Shown: positions 4,968 to 52,272 of the stretch, piece by piece | How the letters are laid out: each line of letters begins with the position of its first letter | How positions within the stretch are numbered: position 1 is the first letter of the stretch | DNA from: Chloroflexota bacterium | GTDB lineage: Bacteria; Chloroflexota; UBA11872; VXOZ01 | Direction: 5' to 3' | Length of the DNA: 64,000 nucleotides | Assembly: GCA_012270555.1 (NCBI GenBank) | Contig: JAAXIC010000048.1 | Coordinates: forward strand, 52,686-116,685 | The notes under the pieces: model-generated | Told to the model about the DNA's origin: nothing | Database searches by the model: none | Seen by the model: only the letters and a program-made list of their open reading frames with translations | Program-made: the position numbers and the translations under genes

Positions 4968-5084
4968 GTGTGGATCTTTCGGTTGTTGTTCAAGGAGTCC
5001 GTCAATTCTCGCTAAAGCTGATAATTGATGCCAGTAGGCAAAATAAAACTGGCGACAATGGTCAGCGCTTCTGCATCTGGCGGA

Positions 5085-5110
5085 CGCAGGTTACAAACCT
5101 GCGCTACCGG
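5085..5110 (-). repeat. REP family A (GTAGCGCAGGTTTG[C/T]AACCTGCG), inverted copy
   Basis: Same palindrome at 9000-9026, 9163-9189, 31678-31795 (three degenerate copies) and 33061-33089. Confidence 0.85.
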
Positions 5111-7831: not shown

Positions 7832-8974
7832 GTGCCAGCCGAAGATCCCAGACTAACCGGAGCCGACGTTGATCCGCTGCGGCAGCAACTCTTTGAGGCC
7901 TACGACAACTGGCTCATGCGCCAGTGCCGCGAGCGCTACGACGCGCGCGGCGAGCGCTGGCAGCGTGACTGCTCCAGCCTTGAGGCGTACTGCCGTTCGG
8001 TGGCGCCGAATCGCGAGCGCCTCTTAGCCATGATTGGCGGCTGGCCGTGGGAGCGCGGGCCGCTGGAGCCTTGCATCGAGGAGATCGCCACCACCGACAC
8101 CTACACGGCATCACGCGTCTGGTACACGTCGTTTGACGACGTACGCGTGGACGCCATTCTCATTCGCCCCCACGGTGACGGTCCCTTTCCAGCAGTCCTC
8201 GCCCAACACGGCGTGAACCATACGCCGGAGCAGATTTGTGGCTTCTGTGATCCGGAACATAGCGCTGCTTACCATGAAATTGGCGTACGCCTGGCCAGAC
8301 ACGGCTACGTGGTCATTGCGCCGCGCATGATCGGCGGTTACGGCGAAGACCGCTACAACGTGCCGAATATTCCTTCGCTACGCTCGCAAGAGCAGGGCCG
8401 GGCCCAGAATCAGATTCACCGCAAAGCGCAATTGATCGGCCAGAGCATTCAGGCGCTGGAGTACTTTACTCTCTCCCGCGCCGTGGACTATCTGGAATCG
8501 CTGCCGGAAGTGGACAACGACCGCATCGGCCTCTACGGGCTTTCCCGCGGCGGGCGCGCGGCGCTGTGGCTGGGCGCGTTGGAGCAACGGCTGCAAGCGG
8601 TGGTGTCTTCCGCGTGGTTCAACGAGCGCTTCAGCAAGATGCTCCAGCCGGAGGCCATCAACGGCGCATTCATCGAGACCTCTTCCGAGTTCCAATTTAT
8701 CCCTGGTCTCTTTCATGAGTTCGGCGACGCCGACATTGCCTCGCTGATTTGCCCCCGCGCCTTCTTTGTCGAGGACGGCAAGCACGACGGCGCGGTGTGG
8801 TGGCCCAACGCCATCCAGGAATTCAAGCTCGTCGAGGAGTACTACGAGAAGCTCGGCATACCAGAGAAGTGCGGTATTCGCATCCACGAACAAGGCCACG
8901 AAACCGAGCCGGAAGACGAGATCACGGACATCCAGGCAGTGGCGTTTCTTGACCGCTGGCTGAAGGGAGCGTGA
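7832..8974 (+). CDS. Alpha/beta hydrolase (dienelactone hydrolase / acetylxylan esterase-like)
   Basis: GPFPAVLAQHG, RIGLYGLSRGG (GxSxG nucleophile elbow), DGKHD and HEQGHET. Confidence 0.85.
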   Translation: MPAEDPRLTGADVDPLRQQLFEAYDNWLMRQCRERYDARGERWQRDCSSLEAYCRSVAPNRERLLAMIGGWPWERGPLEPCIEEIATTDTYTASRVWYTSFDDVRVDAILIRPHGDGPFPAVLAQHGVNHTPEQICGFCDPEHSAAYHEIGVRLARHGYVVIAPRMIGGYGEDRYNVPNIPSLRSQEQGRAQNQIHRKAQLIGQSIQALEYFTLSRAVDYLESLPEVDNDRIGLYGLSRGGRAALWLGALEQRLQAVVSSAWFNERFSKMLQPEAINGAFIETSSEFQFIPGLFHEFGDADIASLICPRAFFVEDGKHDGAVWWPNAIQEFKLVEEYYEKLGIPEKCGIRIHEQGHETEPEDEITDIQAVAFLDRWLKGA

Positions 8975-8999
8975 TGACGGCGCTTGCACGCACATCGTT

Positions 9000-9072
9000 C
9001 CGGTAGCGCAGGTTTGCAACCTGCGCCCAGGCGCGAGCTTGAAGTCCACGTTGCCGGGCTTGCGTGCGACGT
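9000..9072 (+). pseudogene. Truncated duplicate of the REP + HMA-like 5' segment
   Basis: Encodes SAGLQPAPRRELEVHVAGLACDVV, paralogous to SAGLQPAPDREMEVHVAGLACTSI at 9163-9239, then diverges. Confidence 0.55.
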
Positions 9073-9089
9073 AGTTTCGGAGAACAATC

Positions 9090-9455
9090 ATGCCGCGACT
9101 GCTAAACTTCTTCATCGATCCTCGAGTAATTCTGCGGCGCGATGAGGCCCTCAGCGGCGATTCCAGTAGCGCAGGTTTGCAACCTGCGCCCGATAGGGAA
9201 ATGGAAGTCCATGTCGCCGGGCTTGCCTGCACCAGCATATGAGCGCGACGCACGCAGGAGGGCCTTGCGTCACTCCCCGGCGTCCGGGACATCAGCTTCA
9301 ACCCCGATGACGACACGTTCACCGTGCACTATCTTGGAGATGGGCTAGCCCACGGTGACGTTCACAGAGTGGTGCGTGCCAAAGTGGTAGCCAAACCGGT
9401 GCGCAAGCTGCTCGATTGGATCAGCCGCCCGTTTCGGCGCGCCGCGAATGCTTGA
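9090..9455 (+). CDS. HMA-like (heavy-metal-associated) small protein with in-frame UGA; candidate selenoprotein (C-x3-U)
   Basis: MPRLLNFFIDPRVILRRDEALSGDSSSAGLQPAPDREMEVHVAGLACTSI-[UGA 9240-9242]-ARRTQEGLASLPGVRDISFNPDDDTFTVHYLGDGLAHGDVHRVVRAKVVAKPVRKLLDWISRPFRRAANA*. The HMA pattern (V-x-G-L-x-C ... L-x-x-LPGV ... VHY) continues across the UGA. GGAG RBS before ATG 9090; alternative ATG at 9201. Confidence 0.75.
9243..9272 (+). promoter_or_regulatory. Putative bacterial SECIS element
   Basis: Hairpin ACGCA-GG-[AGGG]-CC-(U bulge)-UGCGU at 9252-9270. It starts 9 nt after the UGA, and the loop G lies 18 nt from the UGA. Confidence 0.6.
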
Positions 9456-9540
9456 TTGCAATCTTTGCACGTTCTTCCAACCACTCTACTCACCGGAGAT
9501 TAGAGAATCGGAAGAACCAGCGCAGGTGAGACTGTATCTC

Positions 9541-9602
9541 TCTCGTTCACACTTCGACAGGCCTGTACTGAGCTTATCGAAGTGCTCAGTGCGAACGGGA
9601 GA
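9541..9602. repeat. REP family B, nested double copy
   Basis: CGTTCACACTTCGACAGGCCTGTACTGAGCTTATCGAAGTGCTCAGTGCGAACGG, near-identical in layout to 27852-27906. Confidence 0.8.
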
Positions 9603-9803
9603 GTTTGCCGCAGGTTGCTCGTTCACGACCGCGCACGTATTTCCAACGGCCCCCAATGAGCGTAGTAGGGTTCTGGATCATTCCCGCTTGTGCATCTGCA
9701 CAATTGTGGCTACAGTGAGACTGCTAGTGCTGTGGACTCACGCACTGCCGGAGCCATGTCAACCAAGGTTTCTCGTTTCCCATCGTGAAGAGGACGCAGA
9801 CAC

Positions 9804-10859
9804 GTGCCCGCAACCTCATCCGACCCAGCACTCAACGCCACGCAGAGACTTCCAAGTCCGCCCATTCTCACCACCGTGGTGGGTAGCTACCCGGCGCCGG
9901 CATGGCTGCTCGCCCTGCCTAGCAAGCCGGCGTTGCGTGACGCCATGCTCGCCGTCTTCAAGACGCAGGAACTTGCCGGCATCGACGTGGTCACGGACGG
10001 CGAGCTTTCCCGCTTTGACGTCAGCCACCCCGAGACCCAAGGCATGATCGAGTATTTCATTTCCCCCTTAGCAGGGGTGGACACGGCGTTCAGTCGCTCT
10101 GAAGTAGACGCTTTCCGCCGACAAGCCGGTATGCAGTTCCGCAAGAAACCCGCGGGAGTCGTGAGGGCAGCTATAGGCGAGGGCACGCTCGACCTCCCAA
10201 CCGCCGCGGCCGGCGGCACTCTCACCGCGAAACCGTATAAATTCACGTTGACGAGTCCCTACATGCTGGCAAAGTCACTCCTCGACCTGCATTATCGTGA
10301 TGTCCGCCAACTGGCCTTCGCCATTGCCGACGTCTTTCAGGCACAGGCGGCCGATCTCAAGGCCGATGTATTGCAGATTGACGAGGCCAATCTCGTCGGC
10401 TCTCCGCAGGATGGCGAGTGGGCGGCTGATGTTCTCAACCACGTATTTGTGGGGTTCAAAGGAAAGAAAGGGGTGCATCTCTGCTTTGGCAATTACGGCG
10501 GCCAGACAATCCAGCAGGGACTCTTCAAAGACCTGCTGCCCTTCTTCAACCGGCTGGAATGCGACCATCTCATCCTGGAAATGGCTCGTCCCGGCGATGC
10601 CGAATTGCCGGTATTCAAGGACCTGCGAACCGAAATCGCCCTGGGCATCGGCGTCATTGACATCAAGGACAATGTCGTGGAATCACCCGACCTCATCGCC
10701 CGTCGCATCGAGCGCGCCGTGAATGTGCTGGGCGCAGACCGCATCAAGTGGGTGCATCCCGACTGCGGCTTTTGGATGCTCTCACGCATCGTGGCCGACC
10801 AAAAGATGACTGCACTGGCTAAGGGACGCGATCTCTATCTCGGACAGAAAAGCACATAA
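9804..10859 (+). CDS. Cobalamin-independent methionine synthase, single-domain (MetE C-terminal/core) type
   Basis: TTVVGSYP, VTDGELSR, QIDEAN, HLCFGN (Zn His/Cys), EMA and WVHPDCG (Zn Cys). Confidence 0.88.
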   Translation: MPATSSDPALNATQRLPSPPILTTVVGSYPAPAWLLALPSKPALRDAMLAVFKTQELAGIDVVTDGELSRFDVSHPETQGMIEYFISPLAGVDTAFSRSEVDAFRRQAGMQFRKKPAGVVRAAIGEGTLDLPTAAAGGTLTAKPYKFTLTSPYMLAKSLLDLHYRDVRQLAFAIADVFQAQAADLKADVLQIDEANLVGSPQDGEWAADVLNHVFVGFKGKKGVHLCFGNYGGQTIQQGLFKDLLPFFNRLECDHLILEMARPGDAELPVFKDLRTEIALGIGVIDIKDNVVESPDLIARRIERAVNVLGADRIKWVHPDCGFWMLSRIVADQKMTALAKGRDLYLGQKST

Positions 10860-27851: not shown

Positions 27852-27963
27852 TGTTCACCCTTCGACAAGCCTGTGCTGAGCCTGCCGAAGTGCTCAGGGC
27901 GAACGGCGTGTGAGAGCGTAGAGATGTCGGTCATTCCGGCTCAGGCCGGAGTCCAGGGATGAC
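27852..27963. repeat. REP family B (nested) + family C
   Basis: CCCTTCGACAAGCCTGTGCTGAGCCTGCCGAAGTGCTCAGGGCGAACGG, then GTCATTCCGGCTCAGGCCGGAGTCC. Confidence 0.8.
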
Positions 27964-31677: not shown

Positions 31678-31830
31678 TGGTGGCGCAGACTAGCAACCTG
31701 CGAACCGAGACCTGCCATTGCTCCGGTAGCGCAGGTTTGCAATCTGCGAGTCAAGCCCTGCCATCGCTCCCGGTTGCGCAGACATGCAACCTGCGGAGAA
31801 GCACCCTCACCCCCGTATCAAGTACGGGGC
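31678..31830. repeat. BIME-like mosaic: three family-A REPs at 46-47 bp spacing plus a family-D copy
   Basis: GTGGCGCAG at 31680, GTAGCGCAG at 31726 and GTTGCGCAG at 31773. Confidence 0.75.
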
Positions 31831-33060: not shown

Positions 33061-33132
33061 TCTCCGGTAGCGCAGGTTTGTAACCTGCGGAGAGGCACCC
33101 CCACCCCGGGCCTTTCCTCGAGGCAGAGGGAA
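33061..33132. repeat. REP family A + family D after paralog B
   Basis: Mirrors the arrangement at 31768-31830. Confidence 0.75.
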
Positions 33133-38213: not shown

Positions 38214-38400
38214 AGAGCCTATTTACAATCCTCTCGTCTGGGCGCGCAACGTTCGCCCTGAGCCTGTCGAAGGGTGAATGGGACCGTGAAAAGTTAGCGG
38301 ATCGCCGTTCGTACTTCGACAGGGGCTTCGCGCAGCCCTCAGCACGAACGGCTTTTATCGGCAATGCAAACTTCATCTGGAAAGAACGCAAACAGGCTCT
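38214..38400. mobile_element. MITE-like element with 13-bp imperfect terminal inverted repeats, carrying two family-B palindromes
   Basis: Left end AGAGCCTATTTAC (38214-38226); right end GCAAACAGGCTCT (38388-38400), 11/13 complementary. A partial second copy lies at 40958-41053. Confidence 0.6.
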
Positions 38401-47971: not shown

Positions 47972-48127
47972 GTGAGGGCACGACATGTCGTGCCCTCACC
48001 CTATAGGCAGCCGCCGCCCGAATCCGTCATTCCCGCTTTCGCGGGAATCCATCTTTGTTATTAGAACTTGCCTCACAAATACATTGCTCTGTGCATATCC
48101 GCCCTTCGACAGGCTCAGGGCGAACGG
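47972..48127. repeat. Cluster of three palindromic repeats
   Basis: Perfect palindrome GTGAGGGCACGACATGTCGTGCCCTCAC (47972-47999), family C (48026-48050) and family B (48099-48127). Confidence 0.8.
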
Positions 48128-52198: not shown

Positions 52199-52272
52199 CC
52201 GTTCGCGCTGAGCTTGTCGAAGTGTGAACGCCTGCCTTACCGTTCGCGCTGAGCCTGTCGAAGTGTGAACGG
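52199..52272. repeat. Two direct copies of REP family B
   Basis: CCGTTCGCGCTGAGC(T/C)TGTCGAAGTGTGAACG at 52199-52230 and 52240-52272. Confidence 0.85.

Follow-up and report, generated by a model that had tools for sequence, protein, structure and literature searches.

A probable selenoprotein with a C-x3-U loop in an HMA-like domain of Chloroflexota

A gene that very probably encodes a selenoprotein was located in a 64,000-nucleotide stretch of DNA from a Chloroflexota bacterium (GenBank assembly GCA_012270555.1, contig JAAXIC010000048.1, positions 52,686 to 116,685 of the forward strand). This whole stretch is referred to as the window, and positions are numbered from its first letter. The gene lies at 9090-9455 on the forward strand and carries an in-frame TGA at codon 51, at a position that is occupied by either TGA or a cysteine (Cys) codon in all orthologs found. 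This conserved UGA/Cys pair, together with purifying selection on both sides of the TGA and a downstream RNA constraint seen only where the TGA is present, argues for decoding of the UGA as selenocysteine (Sec). The product is predicted to have an HMA-like fold, and the predicted Sec falls on the second metal-ligand position of that fold.

The gene had been proposed in an earlier reading of the window made from the letters alone (hereafter the sequence-only reading), and the frame that it described, led by a ribosome-binding site, with an ATG at 9090, an alternative in-frame ATG at 9201, a UGA at 9240 and 70 open codons beyond it, was confirmed throughout by direct reading of the sequence. The complete frame translates to 121 residues including Sec and ends at its own TGA (9453-9455); it reads MPRLLNFFIDPRVILRRDEALSGDSSSAGLQPAPDREMEVHVAGLACTSI - TGA (9240-9242) - ARRTQEGLASLPGVRDISFNPDDDTFTVHYLGDGLAHGDVHRVVRAKVVAKPVRKLLDWISRPFRRAANA - TGA (9453-9455), with the immediate surroundings of the internal TGA being ...EMEVHVAGLACTSI-TGA(9240-9242)-ARRTQEGLASLPGVRDISFNPDDDTFTVHY... 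The features on which the argument depends were as follows, with the ratio of nonsynonymous to synonymous substitution rates abbreviated as dN/dS.

9079-9082, forward strand: Shine-Dalgarno-like GGAG, 7 nt ahead of the ATG at 9090, read directly.
9090-9455, forward strand: full coding sequence of the proposed 121-residue selenoprotein with Sec at codon 51, from translation, Cys orthologs and dN/dS.
9228-9230, forward strand: TGC encoding Cys47, the predicted first ligand in the loop C-T-S-I-U; this residue shows no variation in the clade or the wider family.
9240-9242, forward strand: in-frame TGA, presumed Sec codon, residue 51 and second ligand position, from comparison of TGA and TGC among orthologs.

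A purine-rich motif (GGAG, GGAT or GGGT) was present at an equal distance from the start at the other loci. The window belongs to scaffold_49 (141 kb) of ENA assembly ERZ23495058. Two independent assemblies (L001, L002) agree in every base of the gene, TGA included. In several assemblies gene callers divided it into products of 50 aa and 70 aa, and in the window's own contig the part downstream of the TGA received no gene call.

Relatives were collected from protein and nucleotide data. Among 5.8 billion protein clusters a search found no more than 12 close relatives, of which five were full length (120-139 aa) and carried Cys at the position of the window's TGA within the motif G-L-A-C-x-x-[IF]-C-[VA]-R-R-T, and seven were 70-aa gene calls starting at the codon directly after a TGA. 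For three of the loci with 70-aa calls the DNA was inspected, and each had TGA at the aligned codon with an in-frame ...HVAGLACTSI ahead of it. A further 12 loci came from a scan that took one genome per species; all were annotated as metagenome-assembled genomes of Chloroflexota or Chloroflexi, and many were closed chromosomes of ~3.5 Mb. A scan of the metagenome collection added one locus only. Closed chromosomes with the TGA form are OZ242272.1, OZ244803.1 and OZ242329.1, and those with the Cys form are OZ244798.1, OZ244775.1, OZ244922.1, OZ244145.1, OZ253463.1 and OY760183.1. TGA was carried by 11 distinct, diverged loci (the window and 10 others), always as C-T-S-I(ATA)-TGA, and TGC by six orthologous loci (L008, L011, L012, L014, L017 and L018), as C-[TA]-[GR]-I(ATC)-TGC; proteins P0001-P0005 likewise carry Cys at the codon aligned with the TGA. 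Homologs with Cys or another UGA at codon 51 had been named in the sequence-only reading as the observation that would support a selenoprotein, and both kinds were thus recovered, while no homolog ended at this position or held anything other than Cys or TGA there. Insertions in the relatives were multiples of three.

The bases ahead of the recoded position also separated the two forms. The Ile codon at 9237-9239 was the rare ATA in all 11 Sec forms and ATC in all six Cys forms; ahead of it, the former had Ser (AGC or AGT) and the latter Gly or Arg, a pattern suggesting that the 5' context of the UGA may matter for recoding as well. Of the neighbouring genes, those for isochorismatase and SBP were split in two long-read assemblies of low coverage ('5x', '4x'; L005 6107-6770, L006 7120-8505), probably by frameshift errors; the TGA in the selenoprotein gene is nonetheless the same in these assemblies as in those of high quality.

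Both halves of the frame are translated. Among Sec forms dN/dS was 0.20 for residues 1-23, 0.15 for residues 24-50 and 0.21 for residues 52-121, at a mean dS of ~0.7-1.1; the last of these values, a check proposed in the sequence-only reading, denotes purifying selection downstream of the UGA. In 7 of the 11 Sec loci, the window included, the TGA is followed by GCG or GCA, and 27-43 codons pass before an in-frame start (ATG, GTG or TTG) is reached; this start-less stretch had a dN/dS of 0.18-0.20, and its variable sites numbered 29 at first, 27 at second and 52 at third codon positions. Because a stretch of 27-43 codons without a start is under purifying selection, re-initiation cannot explain the downstream part. 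GTG, a possible start, directly follows the TGA in the remaining 4 of 11. Reassignment of the genetic code was ruled out: TGA terminates 10 of 43 long non-overlapping open reading frames (ORFs) of the window, as well as this gene itself in 11 of 11 Sec loci, and is therefore an ordinary terminator in this genome, so that the internal TGA must be recoded site-specifically.

The RNA downstream of the UGA is itself constrained, and this constraint is limited to the UGA-bearing forms. Codons for Q-E-G-L-A-S-L at 9255-9275 (CAG GAG GGC CTT GCG TCA CTC) had a synonymous identity of 0.97 in Sec forms (permutation p ~1e-5), where the gene-wide mean per-codon synonymous identity was 0.62; in Cys forms the same codons varied freely (0.73, p = 0.36). 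No second occurrence of the frozen block was found in the window. We read the region as holding a selenocysteine insertion sequence (SECIS)-type element, for which two pairings are candidates.

9247-9284, forward strand: putative SECIS-type RNA region with its frozen core at 9255-9275, from synonymous identity and hairpin energies in Sec versus Cys forms.
9252-9258 paired with 9264-9270, forward strand: candidate hairpin (a), loop AGGGC, 7 pairs, -8.1 kcal/mol in the window.
9258-9263 paired with 9269-9275, forward strand: candidate hairpin (b), upper stem with a bulged A9272 and loop CUUGC, above a lower stem of 9247-9251 paired with 9280-9284, from the RNAalifold consensus.

Mean energies were -7.1 kcal/mol in Sec forms versus -1.1 kcal/mol in Cys forms for hairpin (a), and -8.9 versus -3.5 kcal/mol for hairpin (b). 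Hairpin (b) was 99% paired, contained one compensated pair (C-G, U-G, U-A) and fits the comparative data at least as well as (a). Both hairpins were retained in all Sec forms and lost in five of the six Cys forms; the exception, L011, is a Cys form that has kept the block and looks like a recent convert, caught just after a change from Sec to Cys. In several respects the candidate element resembles the bacterial SECIS (bSECIS) of the E. coli fdhF type and the bSECIS consensus of Zhang and Gladyshev. It would be a stem-loop starting a few nucleotides 3' of the UGA and inside the coding sequence, it is maintained only where the UGA is present, and its apical loop lies 16-21 nt after the UGA and contains a G.

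The capacity to insert Sec has been reported for the phylum and for the habitat. Chloroflexi have been recorded with selenoproteins and the Sec trait (PMC1794560), tRNA-Sec has been documented in Chloroflexi (PMC5389517), and SelA and SelB were found together in most sponge-symbiont bins, across phyla (PMC5649159).

The protein was examined by profile search and by structure comparison, and three of its segments are referred to below.

9090-9149, forward strand: N-terminal segment MPRLLNFFIDPRVILRRDEA, a predicted beta-strand that may complete the sheet, from conservation in the clade and strand 12-20 of the P0001 model.
9207-9377, forward strand: predicted HMA-like (ferredoxin-fold) metal-binding domain, residues 40-96, from PF00403, a PDB profile and Foldseek.
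9393-9446, forward strand: predicted basic helix KPVRKLLDWISRPFRRAA at the C-terminus, where the protein is most strongly conserved, from conservation and the P0001 model.

The HMA resemblance claimed in the sequence-only reading was borne out. With Cys placed at the UGA, the domain scored 27.0 bits (25.5 bits full-length) with PF00403 against a gathering score of 24.8, which is a small margin, and the 70 residues after the TGA alone scored 18.6 bits; precomputed PF00403 matches are recorded on Cys orthologs. When a profile of the family was compared to the PDB, the best solved relatives were the HMA domains of B. subtilis CopA (1p6t, E = 5.6e-5). In an alignment anchored on R-x-x-x-G-L...P-G-V, Sec51 fell on the second Cys of the CopA C-A-A-C motif and Cys47 one residue further out, in agreement with the earlier placement of the UGA at the second ligand position; the C-x3-U spacing, likewise described there, is real and a trait of the family, since CxxxC occurs in many Cys relatives. 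An AlphaFold model was built on the Cys ortholog P0001 (75% identical) and comprised strands at 12-20, 35-43, 65-71 and 76-82 and helices at 48-60, 88-99 and 103-119. Its beta-alpha-beta-beta-alpha core superposes on CopA, CopZ and MerP, and the N-terminal strand may replace the final strand of the canonical fold. The best geometric matches by Foldseek were the HMA domains of CopA, CopZ, MerP, Atx1 and ZntA (target TM-score 0.65-0.73, root-mean-square deviation ~2 A over ~60 residues).

Conservation extends beyond the core. Residues without variation in the clade are M1, P2, R3, L5, N6, D10, P11, R17 and E19 in the N-terminal segment, together with P103, R105, K106, L107, L108, W110, R113, P114, F115 and R116 in the C-terminal helix; the model of this helix (103-119) had low confidence, with a predicted local distance difference test (pLDDT) score of ~55. 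A signal peptide of the MerP kind was not found, as the N-terminus MPRLLNFFIDPRVILRRDEALSGD, read directly, is without a hydrophobic core. The loop G-L-A-C-T-S-I-U has three residues between the ligands, where the GMxCxxC motif of PF00403 has two. On sequence and model, our reading is that the protein falls outside strict HMA membership on loop spacing yet may work like an HMA domain.

An exhaustive hidden Markov model search of 1.84 billion representatives defined a rare wider family, with 40 matches at E <= 1e-3. Its members are ~100-120 aa long and share an N-terminal MPxLxNhhVxP, an HMA-like core and a basic C-terminal helix, and their loop is either CxxxC or the canonical CxxC. Only G44, C47, C51 and R105 are invariant across this family, and position 51 is always Cys outside the UGA forms; because C51 is one of these four columns, Sec would replace an invariant cysteine. 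No source names the family proteins, except for one automatic 'copper chaperone CopZ' label. Some relatives with Cys (L018 3001-3516, which is P0059, and also P0014 and P0058) have long in-frame insertions of low complexity in the linker, rich in His, Asp and Ser (e.g. DSAHGSDSDHSSDSAHNHGSAH). Such insertions resemble the metal-binding tails of metallochaperones, and those of L018/P0059, rich in His and Asp, lean mildly towards metal handling.

Compared with CopZ, Atx1 and CopA (PF00403), the protein probably has the same fold, by profile and structure comparison, and the same arrangement of a ligand pair at the beta1-alpha1 junction followed by an R...G-L...L-P-G-V helix-to-strand signature, and part of the wider family has the same CxxC. 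It differs in its C-x-x-x-U/C loop, longer by one residue, in having Sec as the second ligand, in a Leu (G-L-A-C) for the usual Met or Thr context, and in the conserved N-terminal strand and basic C-terminal helix that are added to a core whose canonical last strand is not predicted; also, no partner ATPase was present in any neighbourhood examined. From MerP it differs in having neither a signal peptide nor the context of a mer operon.

From these observations the following course of events is proposed. The UGA at 9240-9242 would be decoded as Sec and translation would continue for 70 codons to the gene's own UGA stop. The signal for recoding would be a stem-loop of the mRNA, located within 9247-9284, which the SelB/Sec-tRNA(Sec) complex would recognise. 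The product, probably cytoplasmic, would consist of the N-terminal strand, a disordered linker whose DNA contains a palindrome resembling repetitive extragenic palindromic (REP) elements, the HMA-like domain and the basic C-terminal helix, which may dock to a partner or to the membrane. The metal loop G-L-A-C47-T-S-I-U51 would be the classical GMxCxxC loop with one residue added and Sec as its second ligand, and its thiolate-selenolate pair might bind or hand over a metal ion that is soft and thiophilic (Cu(I) or Hg(II) type). Metal binding is, on sequence and model, slightly favoured as the function of the protein.

A number of results weigh against this interpretation. No selA, selB, selD or tRNA-Sec gene was found in 233 kb (the window and the fetched loci): tblastn with E. 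coli SelA, SelB and SelD as probes gave no matches in the window or any of the loci, and no tRNA-Sec was detected by ARAGORN when it was run on the window and 21 loci. The element, unlike the bacterial SECIS to which it was compared, matched no Rfam family (scan of 8500-10200, E <= 10), has two overlapping pairings and lacks statistically supported covariation; covariation was not significant for (a) or (b) because the core is invariant, and neither hairpin beat the shuffle controls. The hairpin that the sequence-only reading had placed at 9252-9270 does exist, but it is one of two candidates, its central pair is broken in 4 of the 11 Sec sequences, and the fold of 9238-9300 in the window alone was no better than that of shuffled sequence (z = -0.14). 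Confidence in the structural model, built on a Cys ortholog and without the canonical last beta-strand, was moderate (mean pLDDT 67, core ~80), and the Foldseek E-values were weak (6e-3 or higher). No metal-transport or mer genes lie nearby in any context, so that the metal function is argued from the fold and the ligand positions, and a Cys/Sec pair is equally compatible with a redox role.

That last point leads to a tentative alternative, in which Sec is genuine and Cys47 and Sec51 form a redox centre (of a thiol-selenol oxidoreductase or of a peroxide or disulfide sensor) for which the HMA-like fold is a scaffold. To our knowledge nearly all known bacterial selenoproteins are redox enzymes. 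Most bacterial Sec/Cys pairs lie in redox-active motifs (PMC1794560, PMC13188914), and the loop here is one residue off the canonical metal-binding CxxC. Against a redox centre, the fold and ligand positions match metallochaperones and not redox proteins of the thioredoxin fold, part of the wider family has the canonical HMA loop, relatives carry the linker insertions described above, and metal-transport proteins containing Sec are known (PMC2398784, PMC13188914). We judge metal binding the better reading of the two.

Explanations that dispense with Sec were judged far less probable. Near-cognate read-through of the UGA (e.g. by tRNA-Trp or tRNA-Cys), stimulated by the downstream RNA element, would account for the lack of Sec machinery in the DNA examined and for an element that matches no curated SECIS model; it is improbable, as Cys is invariant in every relative without UGA, which is exactly the pattern expected from Sec substitution, as Trp or Arg at position 51 would remove the ligand, and as phylum and habitat are known to use Sec. 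We know of no established bacterial mechanism in which stimulated read-through is paired with Cys orthologs. A shade less probable again is a true stop, in which case the locus would be a gene that is split or in decay, or else would hold two small genes, one for a 50-aa peptide and one for a 70-aa protein. The gene calls in several assemblies and the four GTG codons after the TGA agree with this view, but no gene call covers the downstream part in the window's own contig, the domain would not form from either half by itself, the start-less stretch at seven loci is under selection, and the TGA has been kept across lineages at a dS of ~0.8 without further disruption. A last possibility is an error of sequencing or assembly at the TGA, or else a nonsense mutation of TGC or TGT confined to one strain. 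It has only a general prior in its favour, namely that errors can produce a lone TGA in an assembled metagenome. This possibility, which the sequence-only reading had itself raised, was given next to no probability: two independent assemblies give an identical sequence, a TGA is also carried by 10 more diverged loci, closed chromosomes from long reads among them, giving 11 diverged TGA lineages, and it co-varies with the ATA codon and the frozen downstream block.

Under the preferred reading, as a selenoprotein with an HMA-like metal site, the protein can be set beside the few Sec-containing metal-handling proteins on record. The Global Ocean Sampling survey reported a Sec-containing MerP and a UxxC cation-transporting ATPase (PMC2398784). 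The ATPase reappears in a 2026 catalogue, next to a protein of the MerT type (PF02411, C/SxxU) and a 2Fe-2S protein assigned to cd10141 ('CopZ family'); the catalogue has no PF00403 entry, no three-residue spacing (CxxxU) and no mention of Chloroflex (PMC13188914). Shared with these proteins (PMC2398784, PMC13188914) are Sec in place of a Cys ligand at a soft-metal site and discovery through Sec/Cys pairs and a downstream hairpin. They differ in that their spacing is of two residues (with Sec first in the ATPase), in that they belong to other phyla and in that they are transporters or periplasmic proteins, whereas the protein described here is stand-alone, apparently cytoplasmic, of a distinct Chloroflexota family and outside any mer or ATPase context. 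The selenoprotein family is apparently not yet catalogued. With fair probability the gene is the founding example of such a family, stand-alone and HMA-like, with a C-x3-U loop and with Sec and Cys polymorphic among very close sponge-symbiont Chloroflexota, on whose species tree the alleles are interleaved. New in this are the family, the CxxxU loop and the lineage; the mechanism of Sec insertion and the HMA fold were already known.

The order of genes around the locus was common to 17 of 17 loci and consisted of SBP_bac_1, a DLH/AXE1 esterase, this gene, Meth_synt_2 (MetE-core) and GFO_IDH_MocA, with neighbour proteins 81-97% identical. Because the 17 loci form one narrow clade, this synteny holds little functional information. 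Four distant family members had unrelated neighbourhoods, with no common neighbour and no P1B-ATPase, mer or MetE-core gene. A functional link to the MetE-core gene was rejected along with operon-based inference in general: the adjacency noted in the sequence-only reading is present in the clade, but it is confined to that clade and absent around the four distant members, so that the link hinted at there is unsupported. No mer genes of the MerP context (merT, merA, merR) were found within 10 kb on either side of any locus, and no P1B-type ATPase or CsoR/CopY regulator was found in the conserved neighbourhood or near the distant members.

In a neighbour-joining tree of the neighbouring genes the Sec and Cys forms were interleaved (L008-Cys with L009/L013-Sec, L011-Cys with L016-Sec), and in a tree of the gene itself Sec forms stood apart from Cys forms; neither tree was bootstrapped. 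The contrast hints that close relatives have exchanged alleles, or that conversion between Sec and Cys has happened more than once.

A 314-aa antisense ORF at 8378-9322 (reverse strand) overlaps both the esterase gene and the selenoprotein gene. It was called by no gene caller and looks like a shadow ORF of the kind usual in GC-rich DNA; an ORF of this kind can hide a small real gene from simple ORF filters. A scan of the window for other pairs of ORFs split by TGA gave none that was convincing, although its filter also dropped the present gene, owing to this same antisense ORF. Promoter and terminator scans of 8900-9850 found nothing.

Two repeats lie in and immediately upstream of the gene.

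9162-9192, forward strand: REP-like palindrome in the linker, core GCGCAGGTTTGCAACCTGCGC at 9169-9189, encoding S-S-A-G-L-Q-P-A-P, from repeat count and conservation.
8998-9067, forward strand: out-of-frame partial duplicate of 9161-9230, outside the gene product, a 70-nt direct repeat that is 83% identical.

The palindrome (core CTCCGGTAGCGCAGGTTTGCAACCTGCG) has five copies in the window versus 0 expected, at 5084-5104 (reverse strand), 9006-9026, 9169-9189, 31729-31749 and 33070-33090. Four of the five are intergenic, three of these standing 30-80 nt past a stop codon, and a cluster at ~31685-31795 holds three related copies spaced 46-47 nt apart. The linker copy stood at +81 in every locus except L018 (16 of 17); there, in a gene with the long linker insertion, it stood at +243. 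It showed synonymous constraint in both Sec forms (p = 0.0015) and Cys forms (p = 0.0004). It was absent from the distant family members and expanded in tandem in P0055 and P0058. The duplicate at 8998-9067, which the sequence-only reading did not mention, contains the palindrome and DNA for 'EVHVAGLAC', the repeated segment within the gene encoding 'SAGLQPAP...EVHVAGLAC'. A palindrome at about -81 occurred in seven loci only, all Sec; only the window and L007 have the extended similarity of the repeat in intact form, L005, L006 and L010 have it in degraded form and Cys-form loci lack it, so that from its sequence the region looks like a decaying partial duplication. An Rfam match to a snoRNA at 9005-9070 (E <= 10) was rejected as chance, as this region is the palindrome.

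The window also holds more than 11 copies of a second palindromic repeat family (CACTTCGACAGGC ... CTCAGTGCGAACGG). The copy at 9550-9598 lies in the 348-nt spacer between this gene and the MetE-core gene; there are at least 10 other sites, e.g. 5950, 6056, 25965, 27858-27893, 38249-38338, 40993, 48102-48114 and 52199-52253. The same repeat follows the gene in many of the orthologous loci, where it was recognised by 'SHFDKLSANG' and 'FTLRQAQCER' recurring in translations.

Bacterial selenoproteins are systematically mis-annotated, and the present gene is a case in point, being split into 50-aa and 70-aa products or left uncalled; the 11 TGA loci should be re-annotated as single genes. The finding would extend the selenoproteome of Chloroflexota and of sponge symbionts. 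Sec at a probable metal-ligand position, in a loop one residue longer than CxxC, would be a rare case of selenium as a metal ligand. Sec and Cys alleles in genomes whose neighbouring proteins are 81-97% identical provide matched natural variants for biochemical comparison, and the family, with L011 as a seemingly recent convert, offers a clean view of the maintenance and decay of a SECIS. If the interpretation is true, these genes would constitute a natural minimal system in which selenium can be compared with sulfur as a metal ligand, and in which the rate of SECIS decay after replacement of Sec by Cys can be followed.

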